A DNA stretch of 32,000 nucleotides, taken from positions 1,170,001 through 1,202,000 of the forward strand of contig NC_010655.1 in the NCBI RefSeq assembly GCF_000020225.1, in the 5' to 3' direction. Shown one piece after another: positions 1 to 11,135 of this stretch (its first letter is position 1; each line of letters starts with the position of its first letter). Under the pieces are notes generated by a model. The model made no database searches and was not told the DNA's origin. It saw nothing but the letters and a program-made list of their open reading frames with translations. This DNA is from Akkermansia muciniphila ATCC BAA-835 (lineage in GTDB: Bacteria > Verrucomicrobiota > Verrucomicrobiia > Verrucomicrobiales > Akkermansiaceae). The position numbers and the translations under genes are program-made.

Positions 1-697
1 CGCTCTGAGATCTGCCTTCTCCTCTCGAAGGTCGGATTTTTCTGTTGAAAGTATCGCCTGTTTGACTATAACATGTTTTGTTATAACAATCAAACCAAGT
101 ATAAACTACATAACAACAATTTTCTTTACATATATTATTATGATCACATTCAGATGTGAAATTAGGACTTTTAACCGATGCTTTAACATTAATTCCTTTT
201 GTTCCTGCATCCTGAATGATCGGATGTTCCTGTGATCTTTTGCATTCTTTGCAACATTTTGAACATGGATCCCCTGTTTTTATAAACCCCTTTTTTAACC
301 CCAAAGCATCAAACTTATCTTGAGGGCTGTTCCCGAGGAACGCATATAAATTCCACCCCCCTTCTTCAGCAATGGGATCGCGGTTGATCCATCTGCCGTC
401 TTTTGGGTTGTAAAAGCGGTAATTGTAATAGACCAGGGAGGATTCTTCGTCGTGCATCTCGCCGGACCACTGGACGGGCTGGACGAGGCTGCCCGTACTG
501 GTCACGGCCCCATAGGGGGAGTAATCGTAAGCCGCCGCGATCGTTCCCTGTGCGTCGAAGACCTCTGTGACATTCTTGTTGAAGTCTACGCCGTAGCAGT
601 ACAGGGAAGCGCCCTGCACGAGGGCCAGGGGGCGCGTGGCCATCTCTTCCAGAGAATCCCACAGCAGGGTGCCAAGCACGTTACGGTTGTTGATCAT
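1..697 (-). CDS. Orphan Rhs C-terminal cassette, partial (3' end beyond left edge): Rhs core-end fragment fused to a distinct Cys-rich tip domain
   Basis: Not in the ORF track because there is no in-window stop. Hand translation of the minus strand, in the frame opened by TAA at 713-715 with the first ATG at 697-695: MINNRNVLGTLLWDSLEEMATRPLALVQGASLYCYGVDFNKNVTEVFDAQGTIAAAYDYSPYGAVTSTGSLVQPVQWSGEMHDEESSLVYYNYRFYNPKDGRWINRDPIAEEGGWNLYAFLGNSPQDKFDALGL, then KKGFIKTGDPCSKCCKECKRSQEHPIIQDAGTKGINVKASVKSPNFTSECDHNNICKENCCYVVYTWFDCYNKTCYSQ... The first part parallels the end of the Rhs core of 1299-7157 almost residue for residue. The tip is unrelated to that gene's tip. Confidence 0.75.
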   Translation of the reverse strand, partial: MINNRNVLGTLLWDSLEEMATRPLALVQGASLYCYGVDFNKNVTEVFDAQGTIAAAYDYSPYGAVTSTGSLVQPVQWSGEMHDEESSLVYYNYRFYNPKDGRWINRDPIAEEGGWNLYAFLGNSPQDKFDALGLKKGFIKTGDPCSKCCKECKRSQEHPIIQDAGTKGINVKASVKSPNFTSECDHNNICKENCCYVVYTWFDCYNKTCYSQTGDTFNRKIRPSRGEGRSQS

Positions 698-910: not shown

Positions 911-1213
911 TCAATTAGAATCAGATTTATTTTTTATTTTTTTCAAGACATATGTTATTCTGAAACATTCAATGACTATAATGAGATAACCAAGAATTAA
1001 TACTGTATATGATATTAAAAGTTCATTCGAAAAGTTTTCCCATAATAGATTTATACCATGATACATTGTTGACAAAATTCCAATTATTCCAGAGATCAGA
1101 AATAAATAAATTGTGAGTTTGATAATTGGAAAAGGGAAGTTATTAAATGAAAAATTAAGAGTATTTTTTTTAACCAAACAAGAATTCTTAAAAATAGGAT
1201 TACAAAAACACAT
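911..1213 (-). CDS. Small two-TM membrane protein, candidate immunity protein for the Rhs tip
   Basis: 100-aa ORF with an ATG start, 85 nt downstream of the rhs stop on the same strand, with the same AT-rich composition as the rhs tip. It has two hydrophobic stretches (IIKLTIYLFLISGIIGILSTM and LLISYTVLILGYLIIVIECF). The position matches the usual toxin-immunity gene order. No family was recognised. Confidence 0.55.
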   Translation of the reverse strand: MCFCNPIFKNSCLVKKNTLNFSFNNFPFPIIKLTIYLFLISGIIGILSTMYHGINLLWENFSNELLISYTVLILGYLIIVIECFRITYVLKKIKNKSDSN

Positions 1214-1298
1214 CCATAAACTAATTCAAAATATTCATATACAGTTAAAGGAGACTCAGGGTAAATCATAATACAGGTAACTAATTATATTTCGTTCA

Positions 1299-4200
1299 TT
1301 ATTTAGACCATATTTTTATATTTTCATTAAAAGATTTGTTAACAAGTTCTTCGTTTTGATCTATGATAAATGGGATTTTTAAAGTAGCGTCAATCTTAAT
1401 ATATTCCGTTGCATCTAAAGTTAAATATATTGGTTTTGCGTTCAAAGTTAATCCAGAACTTATCTTAAAATCGATAGAATAAGATGCTTGTATATAAGAT
1501 GATAGTGTAATGCCTGCATCAATTCTGTGAGAAAATCCTAATAATTCTTCCCGATAGGATGTTAAAGTTTTGCCATTACAATTGTCAATTTTAAGTATTT
1601 TTTCATTACTTAATCCAGCAATCATAGTTTTTAAAGAATATTCAATATCAGGAAGAATAGGCCACCATTTTTGTTTAATTTTAAGCCCTATACCTACACC
1701 TATACCAACATCTGTTCGTAATTTTGCTTCAATGCATACACAATTTTTCTTTTTTTCTATTGATATACTTCCCTCAATAATAAGAAGAATGGGTATGTAA
1801 CCCGCAGGAATAGTCATTGTGTAGCCAAATTCGTTAGTTTCTTTTCCGAGATAATCAATAGAAAATACCACTCCATTATCAACAAACCCGTACAAATTCC
1901 ACCCTCCCTGTTCAGCGATGGGATCCCTATTGATCCACCTGCCGTCTTTGGGGTTGTAAAAGCGGTAATTATAATAGGCCAGGGTGGGTTCTTCGTCGTG
2001 CATCTCGCCGGACCACTGTACGGGTTGGACGAGGTTGCCTGTGCTGCCAACTATCCCATAGGGCGAGTAGTCGTAAGCCGCCGCGATCGTTCCCTGTGCG
2101 TCGAAGACCTCCGACACATTCTTGTTGAAGTCCATGCCGTAGCAGTACAGGGAAGCGCCCTGCGCGAGGGCCAGGGGGCGGGTGGCCACCGGTTCCAGAG
2201 GATCCCACAACAGCGTGCGAAGCACGTTACGGTTGTCCAGCATATCCAATGCCGCTATTTGTAAATAGCCGCGGTATAGATAGCGTTCGTGGCTGGCGAC
2301 CGTGCCGTTTTGGGTCACTTTCTTCATGTAGCGGCGTCCCTGGTAATCGTAGCCGCATTCCACGACTGTCGCGCCGTCCCGGCTGGTGAAGCTCACCGCG
2401 CGGTTGGCCGCGTTGTACACGGCCGTCCAGATGCCCGTTGACGTCTTGATGAGGGTCTGGTTGCCCGAGGCGTCGTACGTCGGCACAAAAGGAGCTTCCC
2501 CGCTTTCTTCAATGCCGGTGTACTGGTTGAGCCCGTTGGCCGCGTAGGCGAGTTCTTCGGCCGGTTCCCGTGCCGTCTTGCGGTTGCCGATGTTGTCGTA
2601 GCTGTAGCCGTAGGGGGCGGCGCCCAGGGTAGCGGCGGTGAGTTCGTTTCTGCCGTTGTAGCTGAAGCTGTCGCTGCGGGCGGGTTCCGTTCCACGCTGC
2701 TGGGTGCGGGTGACCGGGCGTCCCAGGGCATCGTAGCCCTGGCTGCGGGAGACCAGCACGGTTTCCCCCAGGCGGCAGTTGATTGCCGTGACCAGGTTGC
2801 GGCGCTGTTCATAGGCAAGTTCCCGGACGATGCCGTCGGGCATCGCAAGGCTGGAGAGCAGGCTGCTTCCTGCCAGGTAGCCGTAGGCGAAGCTTTGCTC
2901 CGTTCCCCCGTGCCTGATTCCGGCGCTGGCCAGCCTTCCGTCGGTTTCATAGCCCTGGCTGGCTTCCTGGAGGACGTCGGTTCCCTGTTTCAGGGTATAG
3001 CCGGAGGAGCGTCCGTAAGTGTCGTAGTGTTCCTGGAGCTGGTAAGAGCTCCCTCCGATGGTGATGCTGTCGGTGTCCGGTTCGTTGCAGGGGGTGTACG
3101 TGAGGACGCGCGAGCCGGAGGCGTCCGTGACCTGGGTCAGCTGGTTGAGGTGGTTGTAGGCGTACTGGATGCCGGGCGTGGAGTCGCTGTAGGAGACGGA
3201 GTTGTTGACCCCCTTCTTCAGGTTGTAGCCCCAGGTGGTGACCACCCCCCGCGCGTCCATGAGCGTGGATTTGAAGTTCAGGGCATTGTAGGCGGTGTCT
3301 TCATGGGTGCCGTCCGCCCAGGTTTTGCGGATGAGCAGGCCCGTGGCGTCATCGTAGCTCCACGTAGTGACGTCCCCGTCCGTGCGTCCCGTGGGGTCGG
3401 CGGTGATGTCGCCCGCGTCCTCCCGGAACGTGGTGAGGCTTATCATCCTGTCCGCCTCGTCATAGCCGAAGAGCAGGGGCTGGGCCCTCGTTCCCCATTG
3501 CGCCGTGTTGCGGCCCCGGAGGTCGTAGCCGTAGCAGGTCGTGTTGCCCAGGGCGTTGGTGACGACGGCAGGCTGGTCAAACCAGGGGCCGTAGGCGGTA
3601 GAAGTCGTGTTGCCCGCCGCGTCCGTCACCGAGATCGTGCGCCCGGTAAGGTCGGTGTGCGTCGTGACCGTGTTGCCCCGGCCGTCCGTGCTGGCGTAGA
3701 TGACGCCGGTTTCCGTGTAGGCGCGGGTATGCGTGGCCGTGACGCCCGCATGGTCCGTTTGCGAGATGATAAAACCGTCGATGACCGTAGCGGCGGCCGT
3801 GATGTCGGAGGTGGGGATGCTGCTTTTCTGCGTCCGGACGGCGCCCGGACCGTATTCGCTCCATTGTTCGGAAGCGTTTCCCCTGGGGTCGATGGAAATG
3901 ACTTTGCTTTCCAGCGTGGACGAGAGGGAGGAAGCCAGCGTTTTCTGCGTTTCGTTATAGGTCGTTCCCCGGCTGTTGTTCCTGGTCGCCGTAACAACGC
4001 GGTATACTTCATCCTGGGCCTGTTCCACGCCGTAGCTCCACGTGGTGATGCGCGAGTTGGATGTCGTGGCCGGATCGGCGAGTTTCCAGGTTTCTTTCGT
4101 TTTGTTGCCGAAGGCGTCGTATTCCCACAGGGTCGGGGCCATCGTCGTGGCCGCATTGCCCGCGTCCGTCTGCGTTTTGGTGAGCTGCCCCCTGGCGTTG

Positions 4201-7088
4201 TAGGTGTTCCTCGTGTAAATGACGCCACCGGTGGTGTTGGGGACGCCCGTGCGCAGGGTTTCCCCGGCTCCGTTGACAATGCTGCGCTGCAGCTCGGTTT
4301 GCGTTTCCCCGGAGACGGCTTTCGTGAAGGTCCGCACACCGTCGCTGACCAGGTCGATGGCGTAGATGACGTGCCGCTGCCCCGTGCCGGATTCTTCCAT
4401 CACCGTTCCGTCCGGCGCGCTGCGCGTGATGAATGTAGCCCCGGAAGGGACGGTTTGCGTGACCGTCAAGCCGTCCTGGCTGTAGGCGTAGGTAGTGACC
4501 CGGCCCAGGACGTCCGTGGTGGAGGTTGTTCTGCCAAGAAGGTCGTAGGTGGCGCTTTCCCGCGTGGTCATCGCCCCCGTGTCTTGACGCGTGGAGAGTA
4601 CGCGCCCTGCCGCATCCCGGACGTAGGTGGTGATGGTTTCCGGCGTGATGACGGTTTCCCCGTCCATCACGGCGGAACGCGTGACTTCCACCAGTTGGCG
4701 CGCCGTGTCGTAGGCGTAGTCCGTCCTGATGCCGTTTTCATCGATTTCCCACAGCAGGCCTCCGTCGCACATCAGTTCGCGTTCCGTGAGCCGGCCGTTG
4801 CCCGCCGTCCGCTTCACCCACCGGTTCTGCGTGTCAAATTCGTAGACGGCGCTGCCCGTGAGCGCCCATTGCCCGGTGGAAAGCAGGAGGTAGTTTTCTT
4901 CCCTGACGCGCTGCCCTTCCGCCGTGATCCAGGTGACGGCGCGCGTGCTTTGTCCCGGCACGGCTTCTCCGTTGATGCGCGTTTCCACCGTTTCCGTGTA
5001 GAGGGCGCCGTGCTCCGTCGTGGCCGCGTAGTCGTGCCACGTTTGCACGCCGTCGAGGTCCCGGCTGAACCGCGTGCGTCCGCGGGCATGGATGTTGGCG
5101 GCTCCGGCCAGCCATTGTTCCTCCGCCGTCAGGCGCGTGCCCGTCACGCCCAGTCCGGTGACCCGCCGTTCCGTTCTTTTGATGTGGTTGGCCGTCGTGT
5201 ATTTCCAGGTGGTGGATGTCAGCGTTTTGACGTGTCCTTCCAGCGGAAGCAGGTCTGCCGTTTCCGTGGCGGGTTCGTTGCTGAAGTCGGCTTCTCCCGA
5301 ACAGGCGTAGGTGTAGCGCGTGATGCGCCTGCCGCTTTCCGCCCACGGTTCGTCCCGGCTGAGCAGGCGGCCGTAGAGGTCATAGGCGTAATGAGTCTGG
5401 CTGCCGCCCGGGGCCGTTTCCGTTCTGAGCCGTCCGCACTGGTCGTAGGCGTATTGCGTGGTTTGCTCCTCCGGGCTTCCGTAGCCTTCCGCCAGCGTGA
5501 GCAGCAGGTCGCCCACGTCCGTGGTCTGGTAGATGGCGCAGGTGCGCGCCGCCACGATTCCGTTTTTGGAGATTTCCGTGACCAGCTGCCAGACCGAGTT
5601 TTCCGGTTCCAGCTCCGTGCGCGTGCGGAGGGTCGTGAGGGCGTCTTCCCCCGTGCCCTGCCGCATGTTCCACGCCAGGCCGTCGTTCCACCAGGTGACG
5701 GCGTAGGGCTGCCTGGCAGGCGCCTGTTCCGTGATGGTGAACTTTTCCTCAGCATCCAGGGAAAGAATAAATGTTTTCAAGGGAGCGCCCGTAACGGTAT
5801 AAAATCCCTGTTCGTCCGTTCCGGTGATTTGCCCAGGGGTATAGAGCGCGATGGTGTAGCCCGTGGAGGTGACGTTTTCCACGTTGAGCAGGCCGTCCCA
5901 CAGGTTCCAGATTTGCCTCAGCGAGCCGTCTCCGGCATGCCTGACGTCCAGATAGGATGACGCGTTGGAGATGACCTGCCTGTCCGTGGTGGTGTAGGAG
6001 AGGAGCGTTCCCGTTTCCGCCGAGAAGAGGTATTGGCTGCCGTCTTCCACCACCCAGCGCAGGCAGGATTGTCCTTCCACCGTGGCCAGCGCCGCACGCC
6101 CTCCGCCCGACGTGTCCACCCCGATGGGCAGCACGGACCCGTCCGTGTAGCAGCGCATGGCAATCACCCGGTCTCCCTGCACCAGGTTGAACCGCACTCC
6201 CGGCGCAATGCCCCCTTCCGGCACGTCCAGACGGCTGTTCAGGGGATGGTTGTAGGCCAGCGAGGAGGGGCTTTCCAGGCCGGAGACGTTTTGTTCAGCC
6301 CTCAGTTCCACCCTTCCGGCCGGAAGGCCCCCAAGTCCACGGAACGCTCCGAAGTTGCAGGACCAGTACATCAGCGTGGCCGTGCTTTCCGCCGTCACGC
6401 TGCACCCCGCCGAGCTGTAGTTTCCCAGGGCGCCGCTTTCCATGCCCGCCTCAGGGCACGACCGGGCCTGCGGCGGGGAGGGCGGCGTTCCGCCGCTGTT
6501 GTCGCACGTGTCTCCCTCGCAGGGACACGGTTCGGGTTCTTTCCTGCCCCCCGGTTCCGTCGGCACCACGTCGATGCTGTAGTTGCAGATGGAGGTGTTG
6601 CCGCTTGCCGGATTGTAGTCGATGTTGGTCTGGCTGACTTCCCAGCTGTAGGTGCCGGAGGGGAGCTGCGCCCCGCCAGTCCCCGTGTGGTATTTGTGCC
6701 CGCCCTGTTCGCCCGCCGTCTGCGGGTTTTCTTTCAGATCCACCTGCGCCACCACGTTGCCGCCGGAGTCCTTCACCTCCAGGATTCCCCAGTCGTCCAC
6801 CCCAAGGAAGAGCGAGCAGGTGCCGTAGAGTTTTTTGCCCTCCGCTCCTTCCGGGATGGTGAATGTCCCGTGCGCGCTGTGCCCGTCCGCCGACGTGCTC
6901 GGCGGCCCCACTTTCCTTTCCTCATGGATCCGGATCGCTTCAAACGGCAGCGGATCGGGATCCGGCTGGCCGGATAAGCGCACGCGGCGAGTAGAGCCGG
7001 ATTGGCTGGCACCGGAACCAAAGTACCATTTCCGGTAAGCGGGAACGGCAGAACGATGGGCGGAGGAGGAACGATGAGGCGGATTCAT
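1299..7088 (-). CDS. Rhs/YD-repeat protein with C-terminal polymorphic toxin domain (ORF stays open up to a TTG at 7157; first ATG at 7088)
   Basis: 1952-aa ORF. Many YD repeats are present (YAYDQCGRLRTE, YAYDLYGRLLSR, YDAFGNKTKE, YGYDLRGRNT, YSYDNIGNRK, YDYQGRRYMK). The Rhs core-end signature is YNYRFYNPKDGRWINRDPIAEQGGWNLYGFVDNGVVFSIDYLG. The track start at 7157 is a TTG; MNPPHRSSS at 7088 is the first ATG. Confidence 0.93.
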   Translation of the reverse strand: MNPPHRSSSAHRSAVPAYRKWYFGSGASQSGSTRRVRLSGQPDPDPLPFEAIRIHEERKVGPPSTSADGHSAHGTFTIPEGAEGKKLYGTCSLFLGVDDWGILEVKDSGGNVVAQVDLKENPQTAGEQGGHKYHTGTGGAQLPSGTYSWEVSQTNIDYNPASGNTSICNYSIDVVPTEPGGRKEPEPCPCEGDTCDNSGGTPPSPPQARSCPEAGMESGALGNYSSAGCSVTAESTATLMYWSCNFGAFRGLGGLPAGRVELRAEQNVSGLESPSSLAYNHPLNSRLDVPEGGIAPGVRFNLVQGDRVIAMRCYTDGSVLPIGVDTSGGGRAALATVEGQSCLRWVVEDGSQYLFSAETGTLLSYTTTDRQVISNASSYLDVRHAGDGSLRQIWNLWDGLLNVENVTSTGYTIALYTPGQITGTDEQGFYTVTGAPLKTFILSLDAEEKFTITEQAPARQPYAVTWWNDGLAWNMRQGTGEDALTTLRTRTELEPENSVWQLVTEISKNGIVAARTCAIYQTTDVGDLLLTLAEGYGSPEEQTTQYAYDQCGRLRTETAPGGSQTHYAYDLYGRLLSRDEPWAESGRRITRYTYACSGEADFSNEPATETADLLPLEGHVKTLTSTTWKYTTANHIKRTERRVTGLGVTGTRLTAEEQWLAGAANIHARGRTRFSRDLDGVQTWHDYAATTEHGALYTETVETRINGEAVPGQSTRAVTWITAEGQRVREENYLLLSTGQWALTGSAVYEFDTQNRWVKRTAGNGRLTERELMCDGGLLWEIDENGIRTDYAYDTARQLVEVTRSAVMDGETVITPETITTYVRDAAGRVLSTRQDTGAMTTRESATYDLLGRTTSTTDVLGRVTTYAYSQDGLTVTQTVPSGATFITRSAPDGTVMEESGTGQRHVIYAIDLVSDGVRTFTKAVSGETQTELQRSIVNGAGETLRTGVPNTTGGVIYTRNTYNARGQLTKTQTDAGNAATTMAPTLWEYDAFGNKTKETWKLADPATTSNSRITTWSYGVEQAQDEVYRVVTATRNNSRGTTYNETQKTLASSLSSTLESKVISIDPRGNASEQWSEYGPGAVRTQKSSIPTSDITAAATVIDGFIISQTDHAGVTATHTRAYTETGVIYASTDGRGNTVTTHTDLTGRTISVTDAAGNTTSTAYGPWFDQPAVVTNALGNTTCYGYDLRGRNTAQWGTRAQPLLFGYDEADRMISLTTFREDAGDITADPTGRTDGDVTTWSYDDATGLLIRKTWADGTHEDTAYNALNFKSTLMDARGVVTTWGYNLKKGVNNSVSYSDSTPGIQYAYNHLNQLTQVTDASGSRVLTYTPCNEPDTDSITIGGSSYQLQEHYDTYGRSSGYTLKQGTDVLQEASQGYETDGRLASAGIRHGGTEQSFAYGYLAGSSLLSSLAMPDGIVRELAYEQRRNLVTAINCRLGETVLVSRSQGYDALGRPVTRTQQRGTEPARSDSFSYNGRNELTAATLGAAPYGYSYDNIGNRKTAREPAEELAYAANGLNQYTGIEESGEAPFVPTYDASGNQTLIKTSTGIWTAVYNAANRAVSFTSRDGATVVECGYDYQGRRYMKKVTQNGTVASHERYLYRGYLQIAALDMLDNRNVLRTLLWDPLEPVATRPLALAQGASLYCYGMDFNKNVSEVFDAQGTIAAAYDYSPYGIVGSTGNLVQPVQWSGEMHDEEPTLAYYNYRFYNPKDGRWINRDPIAEQGGWNLYGFVDNGVVFSIDYLGKETNEFGYTMTIPAGYIPILLIIEGSISIEKKKNCVCIEAKLRTDVGIGVGIGLKIKQKWWPILPDIEYSLKTMIAGLSNEKILKIDNCNGKTLTSYREELLGFSHRIDAGITLSSYIQASYSIDFKISSGLTLNAKPIYLTLDATEYIKIDATLKIPFIIDQNEELVNKSFNENIKIWSK
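1302..1844 (-). other. Rhs C-terminal tip (toxin) domain, 181 aa, family not recognised
   Basis: Begins immediately after ...SIDYLG; the K codon is at 1844-1842. The sequence is KETNEFGYTMTIPAGYIPILLIIEGSISIEKKKNCVCIEAKLRTDVGIGVGIGLKIKQKWW...IKIWSK. There is an abrupt switch from GC-rich core to AT-rich DNA near 1880. Confidence 0.7.
1891..2254. repeat. Direct repeat copy 2 (end of the full-length Rhs core), homologous to 345-708
   Basis: See copy 1. This copy encodes LDMLDNRNVLRTLLWDPLEPVATRPLALAQGASLYCYGMDFNKNVSEVFDAQGTIAAAYDYSPYGIVGSTGNLVQPVQWSGEMHDEEPTLAYYNYRFYNPKDGRWINRDPIAEQGGWNLY. Confidence 0.9.
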
Positions 7089-7580
7089 CAGGTATTCAAG
7101 AGTTGGGAGTAATGAATGAAGCGAGGGGTGGCCGCCCTTTCCTGATCGTTTTATCAATAGTATGATCCGAAGTCGGTGTCGATAGAATTTTATTTGTATG
7201 TTTTTGATTTTTTATAAAAGATGGTCATTATTTTACACGAAAAGATAATATTATAATTCTTACGTTCAGTGCATTCCCTTAATAGACATCAATGTTGTCT
7301 GTTTGTTAGAAAATGTTTCCCTCTCATGCTGAGCCCTTGACAGGATGCCATCCCTTCCGGGCATCAGTCTAATTCCTGTAATCAATGTTTCTTTCTCTCG
7401 AAGAAAGATGGGGGCCGTCGCTGTCGGAAGGGGGCTTGCTTAGGTTTCGTCCGGCATTTCCAAGTACAGTCTCCTGGATTACTGGGAACCTTCCAGTGTA
7501 ACATTTATTTTTTACGCTGCGCGACGATGAGGAAGCAACTGTCTGATATTTTATTCCTGGTTCAAGGAAACCTGATAATG

Positions 7581-7645: not shown

Positions 7646-8413
7646 TTAGAAACAGAGACCTTCCTTGGCGTTGGCTCGCATGAAGTCGCGGTTGAGGCGG
7701 GCGATGTTGTCCACGCTGATGCCTTTCGGGCAAGCAGCTTCACATTCATACTGGTTCGTGCAGTTGCCGAAGCCTTCCGCTTCCATTTGCTTCATCATGG
7801 CCAGGACGCGCTTGGAACGTTCCGGCTGGCCCTGCGGCAGCAGATTGAGATGGGCGATCTTGGCGGAGGTGAACAGCATGGCGGAGGCGTTTTTACAGGA
7901 GGCCACGCAGGCGCCGCAGCCGATGCAGGCGGCCGCGTCAAAGGCGGCGTCCGCCTTCACTTTTTCCACGGCGATGTTGTTGGCGTTCGGCGCGGAACCG
8001 GTACGCACGTCAATATAGCCTCCGGCGGCGATGATGCGGTCCAGGGCGGAGCGGTCCACCATCAGGTCCCGCAGGATTGGGAAAGCCTTCGCGCGGAAGG
8101 GTTCAATCCAGACGGTATCGCCGTCCTTGAACTTGCGCATGTGAAGCTGGCAAGTGGTCACCTGGCGTTCCGGCCCGTGGGGAATGCCGTTGATGGTCAG
8201 GGAGCACATGCCGCAGATGCCTTCCCGGCAGTCGTGGTCAAAATGGATGGGTTCCTTGCCTTCCTTGACCAGGCCTTCATTGACGATGTCCAGCATTTCC
8301 AGGAAGGAGGCGTCCACCGGAATGTCCTTGGCGGCATAGGTCTCAATGCGGCCCTTGGCTTCCCGGTTTTCCTGGCGCCAGACCTTGAGAGTGAGATTGA
8401 GTGTTTTAGCCAT
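7646..8413 (-). CDS. sdhB: Succinate dehydrogenase/fumarate reductase iron-sulfur subunit
   Basis: Three Cys clusters: CREGICGMC (2Fe-2S), [11 protein letters not shown] (4Fe-4S) and [14 protein letters not shown] (3Fe-4S). The track ORF starts at 8476 but would overlap sdhA. ATG at 8413 ([14 protein letters not shown]) leaves a 40-nt gap after the sdhA stop. Confidence 0.93.
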
Positions 8414-8453
8414 GTTATAATCTTTCTTTTGAGTGTTAATGTATTGGCTATCT

Positions 8454-10412
<1,959 letters not shown>

Positions 10413-10433
10413 GACTTTGAGAGGAGTTGATGG

Positions 10434-11135
10434 TTATTTGATGATACCCAGAAGAACCGAGACCGGCACGGAGATGAAGCCCAGGCAGATAATCGCGCCG
10501 TAGGCGATGGCGATAAAGTTGTAGAAGGGCCGGATTTTGCGGGAATCGACGCCCACAGTCTGGAAGATGGACTGTACCCCGTGGCGCAGATGGCTGAACA
10601 GCATCAGAACGGCCAGGATGTAGAAGGCGGAGCACCATACGTTGGAGAATCCGGTCACGATCATCTTGTACACGTCAAAGGTTTCCACCGTACCGTCGGA
10701 AATGAAGGTGGTGAACTGGGCGGGGTCGTATCCCACGCGCAGGGTGTACTGGTACAGGTGGTAGATCAGGAACACCAGGACGGTCAAACCGGTATAGATC
10801 ATGTAGCGGGAGGAGAGCGTTGCCTTAATGGTGTTCTTGAACACGTAGGGTTCGCGGGCCGCATGGTTTTCCAGCTTCAGCTGGATGGTCAGCCAGACGT
10901 GGATGATGAAGATCACCGCAAGCCCCGCGCGGATTCCCCAGAGGGCTGCTTCCGGCATGGAGTGCAGGCCGTGGGCGTAGGTGTTGATCCATTCAGGGCC
11001 TCCGAAGATGAGAAGGTTGCCTGCCAGGTGTCCCGCAAGGAACAAGACCAAACATAACCCCGTCAGAGCCACAATGATTTTGCGGCCGATGGAGGATGTC
11101 ACGAATGTACATATGGTTTTTACTAGTGCATTCAT
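10434..11135 (-). CDS. sdhC: Succinate dehydrogenase/fumarate reductase cytochrome b subunit (single large membrane anchor)
   Basis: 233-aa polytopic membrane protein with about five hydrophobic helices and several His residues, 21 nt upstream of sdhA. The C-A-B gene order with one anchor subunit is as in Bacteroides/Wolinella-type enzymes. Confidence 0.85.
   Translation of the reverse strand: MNALVKTICTFVTSSIGRKIIVALTGLCLVLFLAGHLAGNLLIFGGPEWINTYAHGLHSMPEAALWGIRAGLAVIFIIHVWLTIQLKLENHAAREPYVFKNTIKATLSSRYMIYTGLTVLVFLIYHLYQYTLRVGYDPAQFTTFISDGTVETFDVYKMIVTGFSNVWCSAFYILAVLMLFSHLRHGVQSIFQTVGVDSRKIRPFYNFIAIAYGAIICLGFISVPVSVLLGIIK

Follow-up and report, generated by a model that had tools for sequence, protein, structure and literature searches.

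The C-terminal toxin of the Rhs protein Tse5 (Tse5-CT) forms pores, and its immunity protein Tsi5 contains two predicted transmembrane (TM) regions (PMC9637101). The site of action of an effector is indicated by the location of its immunity protein, and Sip4, which confers immunity to the pore former Ssp4, is an integral membrane protein (PMC12669606). Studies of the pan-genome and of vesicles have mentioned Rhs proteins from Akkermansia (PMC8920140, PMC11923206), and our literature search found no characterisation of any Akkermansia Rhs tip. Here we analyse a 32,000-nucleotide stretch of Akkermansia muciniphila ATCC BAA-835 (NC_010655.1, positions 1,170,001 to 1,202,000), referred to as the window, in which an Rhs protein ends in a 181-residue tip and is followed by the gene of a small membrane protein. 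The tip and the membrane protein constitute a new toxin/immunity family, within a kind of locus (Rhs protein, polymorphic tip, immunity gene and orphan array) that is already well known. The closest functional analogue is Tse5 (RhsP1)/Tsi5 of the Pseudomonas aeruginosa H1 type VI secretion system (T6SS) (PMC9637101, PMC10684867). We put the probability that the toxin is membrane-acting at roughly 0.45, and consider a β-pore version of such action much less likely.

The Rhs/YD-repeat protein is encoded on the reverse strand (1299..7157), as are all other features given below with two-dot coordinates. The mechanical open reading frame (ORF) call, which starts from TTG at 7157, predicts 1952 amino acids (aa). 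A start at the ATG at 7088 (MNPPHR...), read off the translation, seems more plausible and agrees with the start of an Rhs remnant at the related locus L003. The 1952-aa ORF matches RHS_repeat (PF05593; 1.2e-25, 8 stretches) and YD_repeat_2x (TIGR01643; 3.7e-18). Residues 1697-1771 (1845..2069; ...YNYRFYNPKDGRWINRDPIAEQGGWNLYGFVDNGVVFSIDYLG) form the Rhs-associated core and match positions 1-75 of the 76 positions of the Rhs_assc_core profile (TIGR03696; 4e-17). The conserved shell terminates at …FSIDYLG (residue 1771), and because the core match ends there, the tip was taken to begin at residue 1772, which corresponds to window position 1844. Rhs and Tc proteins undergo self-cleavage in the core, on which the expectation of tip release in this protein is based. 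Here the core presumably holds an aspartyl autoprotease and the cleavage motif that ends the conserved shell. From 0.57-0.69 in the core, the guanine-plus-cytosine (GC) content drops to 0.23-0.33 over positions ~800-1900. The genomic signs of an Rhs/YD-repeat polymorphic toxin are present in all three respects, i.e. the repeats, a core preceding a variable C-terminus, and a low-GC tip with an adjacent gene and orphan modules, and the layout is that of a textbook Rhs polymorphic-toxin locus. A preliminary description of this DNA had reported the Rhs ORF, the tip boundary and a number of sequence features, and all of them were found where it had placed them.

The tip itself (1302..1844; residues 1772-1952; stop codon at 1299-1301) is the toxin payload of this locus. 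It is a genuine gene, because 181 open codons in DNA of ~27% GC, where ~8.5% of random codons would be stops, are improbable by chance (probability ~1e-7), and because the ratio of nonsynonymous to synonymous substitution rates (dN/dS) between its two allele types is 0.22 (dS 0.17). The underlying alignment comprised 12 tips, including that of the window (type A) and nine of type B. Residues 1-70 of the window tip are identical to those of the type-B tips, and among all 12 tips the sole change in this region is I29V (L001, L002 and L014).

No family match for the tip was found in Pfam, NCBIfam, PADLOC, PHROGs or the PDB sequences, and library scans with the tip and the immunity protein yielded sub-threshold noise only (DUF5095 0.025, LapA_dom 0.014, PDC-M48A 0.007). 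The tip contains one histidine and three cysteines, and its earlier characterisation as an unrecognised domain lacking a catalytic signature was borne out. These results support the view that it is a payload without a recognisable enzyme family. A word-seeded search of 5.8e9 protein clusters returned 24 tip matches, each with an identity of 80% or more. One further protein, P0085 (E = 2.7e-6), came from a filter-only HMMER pass over 1.84e9 representatives. It was rejected as spurious: P0085 is a Big_12 Ig-repeat protein whose score is the sum of seven copies of a ~30-residue strand-like match (ISAGLTLNA…IDAT.Y), and the tip has no Big_12 match. All named relatives of the tip and the immunity protein are assigned to Akkermansia muciniphila or Akkermansia sp., and the tip family appears to be confined to Akkermansia-type sequences. 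A Firmicute donor was considered on account of two genome-scan matches in metagenome-assembled genomes (MAGs) labelled Mollicutes (L001, UQAI01000098.1) and Stoquefichus (L002, JAETUM010000110.1), and was rejected. Both contigs carry GC-rich Akkermansia-type Rhs core sequence and are therefore read as mis-binned, probably into low-GC MAGs through the 25-30% GC of the tips and immunity genes.

The gene downstream of the tip (911..1269) was delimited by protein and DNA alignment to its relatives, in which it encodes a protein with three helices. Most of the relatives are 119 aa long and start with MIYPESPL…, which corresponds to the ATG at window position 1269. On the Kyte-Doolittle scale, for which we used a TM-helix threshold of 1.6 in a 19-residue window, all three hydrophobic segments of the full form (13-33, 47-68 and 82-105) lie above the threshold. 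AlphaFold2 placed helices at 10-36, 47-78 and 82-118 (pLDDT 61). The adjacent gene had previously been proposed to encode an integral membrane protein, and both analyses agree with this. The best-conserved part of the protein is the region TM2-loop-TM3.

Several lines of evidence support the identification of this membrane protein as the cognate immunity of the tip, a role for which it had already been put forward as a candidate. The gene follows the tip within ~11-30 nt in every one of the 13 intact modules examined, which come from 12 sources (L010 has two in tandem). It is under purifying selection (dN/dS = 0.27 at a dS of 0.17, the same dS as for the tip), and type-A tips pair with type-A immunity proteins, type-B tips with type-B ones. 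No diversifying selection was seen at the tip/immunity interface (dN/dS 0.22-0.27). At L003-L006 (Akkermansia sp. BIOML-A17 and similar contigs) the Rhs gene is a deleted remnant and the tip is shattered by frameshifts and stops, with an intact immunity homologue beside it (117 aa, P0067, present on 103 contigs). A 127-aa homologue sharing 61% identity lies at L026 (3570-3953), directly after exosortase EpsH/EpsI genes and with no Rhs gene nearby. Judged from its surroundings, it is a stand-alone orphan immunity gene in another genomic context. L027 has a free-standing, toxin-less immunity copy at the end of an array. Because intact copies persist beside shattered or absent toxins, the gene is read as an immunity gene and not as one for a release or chaperone factor. 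Distant relatives beside known toxins were sought in a profile search based on nine diverse immunity sequences, and none was found outside this family.

The window carries a frameshifted allele of the immunity gene. DNA alignment located the frameshift at an A8 homopolymer (1164..1171), which stands in frame as the slippery heptamer A_AAA_AAA. L001 (784-802) and L002 (2212-2230) have A9 at this site, against A8 in the window, and the DNA is otherwise almost identical. The ORF is thereby split into products of 57 aa with TM1 (1096..1269) and 100 aa with TM2 and TM3 (911..1213). The latter is the “two-TM protein” of the preliminary description: this ORF exists and encodes an integral membrane protein, but it represents only the 3′ part of a gene that specifies three helices in its relatives, and the 5′ end had been missed. 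The exact 100-aa product occurs on 297 contigs (568 index blocks; NCBI, JGI, ENA and Logan), and the matching 119-aa type-A form on four. Recovery of the 100-aa product on that many contigs, drawn from four sources, shows that the A8 allele is no isolated error, and sequencing error was ruled out as a sufficient cause of the frameshift. A divergent lineage (P0066, L027) has the same alternate-frame N-terminus as the A8 allele, while type-B immunity alleles have ATC followed by A8 and are in frame.

Slippage on A_AAA_AAA, either -1 ribosomal or transcriptional, could restore the full immunity protein. No RNA structure that might stimulate programmed frameshifting was found downstream of the A8 run (z = -0.3). 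For immunity in A8 strains there are three possibilities: TM1 is dispensable, slippage restores the full form, or a second copy is present elsewhere. Among type-A genotypes, the one seen most often pairs an intact toxin with an A8 immunity gene (window, L016, L017, L022, L023 and L025).

Hydrophobicity in the tip peaks at residues 11-29 (TIPAGYIPILLIIEGSISI; 1758..1814), with a maximum Kyte-Doolittle value of 1.57. No 19-residue window of the tip exceeds 1.6, and the tip thus has no segment of TM-helix grade. The hydrophobic segment IPILLII, pointed out earlier, is real but too short for a TM helix. Stretches of alternating polar and apolar residues had also been described, and this impression proved correct. 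The β hydrophobic moment of the tip has a z-score of 4.8, a value reached by none of 1000 composition-matched shuffles, and the α hydrophobic moment shows no such excess (z = -0.8). The longest β-amphipathic run comprises residues 35-60 (CVCIEAKLRTDVGIGVGIGLKIKQKW; 1665..1742), with a β moment of at least 2.0 over 26 residues. It is identical in the window and in all nine type-B tips. In amphipathicity and length it would suffice for a bilayer-spanning hairpin, a property that is necessary but not specific.

The same run contains the motif GxGxGxG (G47, G49, G51 and G53). Its period is 2, with glycine and lysine on one strand face and valine, isoleucine and leucine on the other. The in-register flanks are R43, D45, K55 and K57, and there are no three small residues at positions i, i+4 and i+8. 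The tip gave no Pfam Gly-zipper match, and a glycine zipper, i.e. (G/A/S)xxxGxxxG in a hydrophobic helix, was rejected. The run described earlier as glycine-zipper-like is therefore present but was wrongly labelled, its period being 2 and not 4.

Structure prediction followed by a Foldseek search had been proposed as a check, and its outcome speaks neither for nor against a membrane-acting tip. From a shallow alignment, AlphaFold2 returned an all-strand model of low confidence (pLDDT 39). Searched against the PDB, this model, too poor for an informative search, gave nothing below E = 0.05. The non-significant list (E at least 0.05) contains long-hairpin proteins (MAC, gasdermin and outer-membrane barrels) and was not used as evidence.

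A membrane-acting toxin, as the preliminary description had suggested, could operate here as follows. The Rhs shell carries the 181-residue payload directly after the Rhs-associated core, and the payload would be freed by aspartyl self-cleavage of the core. By the positive-inside rule, the immunity protein is predicted to be a small polytopic inner-membrane protein with its N-terminus outside and both the KK first loop and the basic C-terminus inside. Its periplasm-facing part would then consist of ~15 N-terminal residues (an acidic N-terminus) and a 14-residue loop. A protein so largely buried in the bilayer is ill suited to neutralising a soluble enzyme, which makes the cytoplasmic membrane of the target cell the most likely site of action of the toxin. 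The toxin would reach this membrane from the periplasm and act at it or in it. The analogy with Tse5/Tsi5 (PMC9637101) and Ssp4/Sip4 (PMC12669606), in which integral-membrane immunity proteins counter pore formers, points the same way, and the signal-peptide-like N-termini of immunity candidates in neighbouring modules fit toxins with a site of action outside the cytoplasm. Amphipathic β-hairpins, with tip residues 35-60 as the candidate, might insert and produce an ion-conducting pore or lesion that dissipates the membrane potential. Because of the β periodicity and the lack of hydrophobic helices, a β-type lesion is favoured over the α-helical mechanism of Tse5 and Ssp4. Kin cells would owe their protection to contact, within the membrane, between the toxin and the conserved TM2-loop-TM3 region of the immunity protein. 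For the window allele, which an A9-to-A8 slip reduces to the TM2-TM3 ORF, either that ORF would suffice or -1 slippage would restore the full form at a low level.

A number of observations weigh against action on membranes. The tip is tied to membranes by no experiment or structural match, its AlphaFold2 model is of too low a pLDDT (39) to be used, and Foldseek gave no significant match. It is not hydrophobic overall (GRAVY -0.01) and lacks a TM-helix-grade segment. Amphipathic strands are equally expected in an ordinary soluble β-sandwich. The characterised pore-forming T6SS/Rhs effectors Tse5 and Ssp4 are predicted to be α-helical (PMC9637101, PMC12669606), and no precedent for a β-type mechanism was found among effectors of this kind. 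The commonest type-A genotype, an intact toxin beside a frameshifted immunity gene, is awkward for a potent self-delivered toxin whose neutralisation needs the full immunity protein. Moreover, frameshift-truncated toxin alleles are frequent, and the module may often be inactive. In its most specific form, the proposal is that the tip is the first β-type (hairpin or barrel) Rhs pore-forming payload, that it is neutralised in the bilayer, and that A-runs serve as contingency switches turning toxin and immunity on and off in Akkermansia populations. We regard this combination as a long shot.

The alternative that survives best, though we think it doubtful, is that the tip is an enzyme of a new fold whose substrate, such as lipid II, undecaprenyl phosphate, a phospholipid or a membrane protein, is embedded in the membrane or faces the periplasm. 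The membrane immunity protein would then shield the substrate or bind the toxin at the membrane surface. A membrane location of the immunity protein suits any envelope-acting toxin and not just pore formers, and the largely polar tip, with its balanced charge (22 K+R, 21 D+E), resembles a soluble domain. In L001 and L002, the sequences of the immunity candidates of three neighbouring modules all have signal-peptide-like N-termini; these candidates look exported, which suggests that these Rhs toxins generally act outside the cytoplasm. However, the tip matches no enzyme family or solved structure, it has only one histidine, and the immunity protein exposes very little with which an active site could be blocked.

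It is improbable that the tip acts in the cytoplasm, perhaps as a nuclease or NADase of a novel type, while the membrane protein either prevents import across the inner membrane or is not the immunity protein at all but an accessory or holin-like release factor. Cytoplasmic enzymes do make up most of the characterised Rhs tips. Furthermore, the three-helix protein with its basic C-terminal tail (…VLKKIKNKSDSN) is superficially holin-like, and many assemblies carry an intact toxin alongside a frameshifted membrane-protein gene. Yet intact membrane-protein copies persist without a toxin (L003-L006, L026 and L027), where a release factor would be useless. In addition, no ORF for a cytoplasmic-type immunity protein lies between the tip and the next orphan module, and scans with Pfam/NCBIfam and related libraries found no nuclease or NADase motifs in the tip.

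Within the tip, length variation was observed at two further A-runs. The A6 run at 1598..1603 (…SNEKIL…) is A7 in many assemblies, among them L018-L021, which yields a truncated toxin (…SNEKNT*); the corresponding cluster, P0014, has 52 members. Length variants of the A7-G-A5 run at 1744..1756 (…EKKKN…) also lead to a truncated toxin (…EKKEKLCMH*), and L019 and L020 have A8 there. The truncated toxin P0023 occurs on A. muciniphila contigs of genome scale (2.9-3.0 Mb; QWP05413.1 and others). Such variants could reflect phase-variation-like switching or recurrent decay.

That the module is a decaying relic without current function, its tip and immunity gene lost through homopolymer frameshifts, appears the least probable of the alternatives: it would account for the frameshift variants at three A-runs, the truncated toxins on the genome-scale contigs (P0023) and in many assemblies, the frameshifted immunity gene of the window and the shattered tip in L003-L006, but the window tip frame is intact over 181 codons of 27% GC DNA, dN/dS between the allele types is 0.22-0.27, and the module is attached to a full-length Rhs protein in the window and present as a tandem duplicate in L010.

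A second module, an orphan Rhs C-terminal one, lies downstream (2..697; Rhs_assc_core 1.2e-21) and runs off the left end of the window. A core segment of 300 nt is directly repeated between the two modules (339-638 and 1885-2184; 88% identity). The orphan module has a different, Cys-rich and low-GC tip (…CSKCCKECK…CDHNNICKENCCYVVYTWFDCYNKTCY…), likewise without a family. A complete copy of it is present in L002 (2623-3369). The 149-aa ORF that follows it there (3373-3822) starts like a lipoprotein and has no Pfam match. The 181-aa tip itself occurs as an orphan module in L001 and L002. In the same arrays, other modules (L020 1342-2690; L008 453-1578; L010 2883-3695) bear an Ntox16 tip with DUF6714 next to it. 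One orphan tip in these arrays is followed, at the position of the immunity gene, by a Peptidase_S26 (signal-peptidase-I-like) gene, which may explain the “signal peptidase I” that co-varies with Rhs genes between strains (PMC8920140).

A chimeric ORF was identified on an 89-kb ENA contig. Its product, P0008 (176 aa), combines the 69 N-terminal residues of the immunity protein (through TM2, …GVLSTM) with the 107 C-terminal residues of the tip (VAGLSNEK…), and the dipeptide TM at the junction is common to both parts. It looks like the product of a deletion that joined an immunity gene to the tip copy following it in tandem.

The Rhs gene is located directly downstream of an operon on the same strand (7646-11135) that encodes the Fe-S, flavoprotein and cytochrome b subunits of a succinate dehydrogenase/fumarate reductase. 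The Rhs N-terminus (window 6600-7157) has no signal peptide, PAAR or other recognisable delivery domain, and a sub-threshold FlgD_ig match was obtained at Rhs residues 126-178. A promoter and terminator scan of the locus gave nothing above chance.

A. muciniphila is a candidate next-generation probiotic, and one of its clades usually excludes others within a host (PMC11923206). Rhs proteins are enriched in A. muciniphila vesicles and have been proposed, without proof, as exclusion weapons (PMC11923206). The cassette described here is a concrete toxin/immunity pair that is apparently confined to Akkermansia. If the tip is a β-type membrane toxin, it would represent a new mechanistic class among Rhs payloads, and if the A-runs act as contingency switches, this could feed into the exclusion of strains and clades in the gut. 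Typing the homopolymer variants offers a simple genetic way to tell armed strains from disarmed or merely immune ones. Unclassified Rhs tips are common, and should this one be an ordinary envelope enzyme, it would be one more among many. What the locus adds is its host organism, an apparent confinement to a single genus, a β-type mechanism that it may use, and variation in its homopolymers.

Like Tse5/Tsi5, the Akkermansia locus consists of an Rhs shell, a C-terminal toxin without an enzymatic signature and a small integral inner-membrane immunity protein, two helices of which remain in the window allele. The reasoning from a membrane immunity protein to a membrane-acting toxin that is followed here was also applied to Tse5/Tsi5, for which depolarisation and bilayer experiments then confirmed it. 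Neither the tip nor the immunity protein has sequence similarity to Tse5-CT or Tsi5. In addition, Tse5-CT is hydrophobic and predicted to be α-helical with TM helices, unlike the β-periodic tip. Tse5 has a PAAR-like N-terminus and is delivered by the T6SS, while the Akkermansia Rhs protein has no recognisable delivery domain. The pair thus does not belong to the Tse5/Tsi5 type, from which homology and helix-type hydrophobicity set it apart, and a membrane immunity protein is the sole feature that it shares with this type.

The Serratia pairs Ssp4/Sip4 and Ssp6/Sip6 are likewise composed of family-less toxins and integral inner-membrane immunity proteins that neutralise them, and both toxins act on the inner membrane from the periplasm (PMC12669606). 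They differ from the tip in being predicted α-helical proteins that are not Rhs-borne and share no homology with it, and Sip4 has four TM helices.

The tip resembles β-barrel toxins such as aerolysin and α-hemolysin/leukocidin in residues 35-60, where apolar and polar residues alternate strictly over a long stretch containing Gly, Ser and Thr. Such alternation is characteristic of the membrane-spanning hairpins of β pore formers. Unlike the toxins of the aerolysin/ETX-MTX2 and leukocidin/hemolysin groups, however, the tip is much smaller and has no Pfam match, and the best Foldseek value, E = 0.05, came from a pLDDT-39 model. No β-barrel pore-forming toxin is known as an Rhs payload. Glycine-zipper membrane toxins, e.g. 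the C-terminus of EsxX (PMC12744356), differ in possessing a (G/A/S)xxxGxxxG hydrophobic helix, which is absent from the tip.

In its architecture the locus agrees with generic Rhs/WapA polymorphic toxin loci (Koskiniemi et al. 2013, cited in PMC8920140 and PMC11923206): a conserved GC-rich core, a low-GC tip, an adjacent immunity gene, orphan modules with a repeated core, and orphan immunity genes. The characterised tips of such loci are for the most part nucleases or further enzymes of the cytoplasm, countered by soluble immunity proteins, whereas here a tip of no described family is paired with a polytopic membrane immunity protein.

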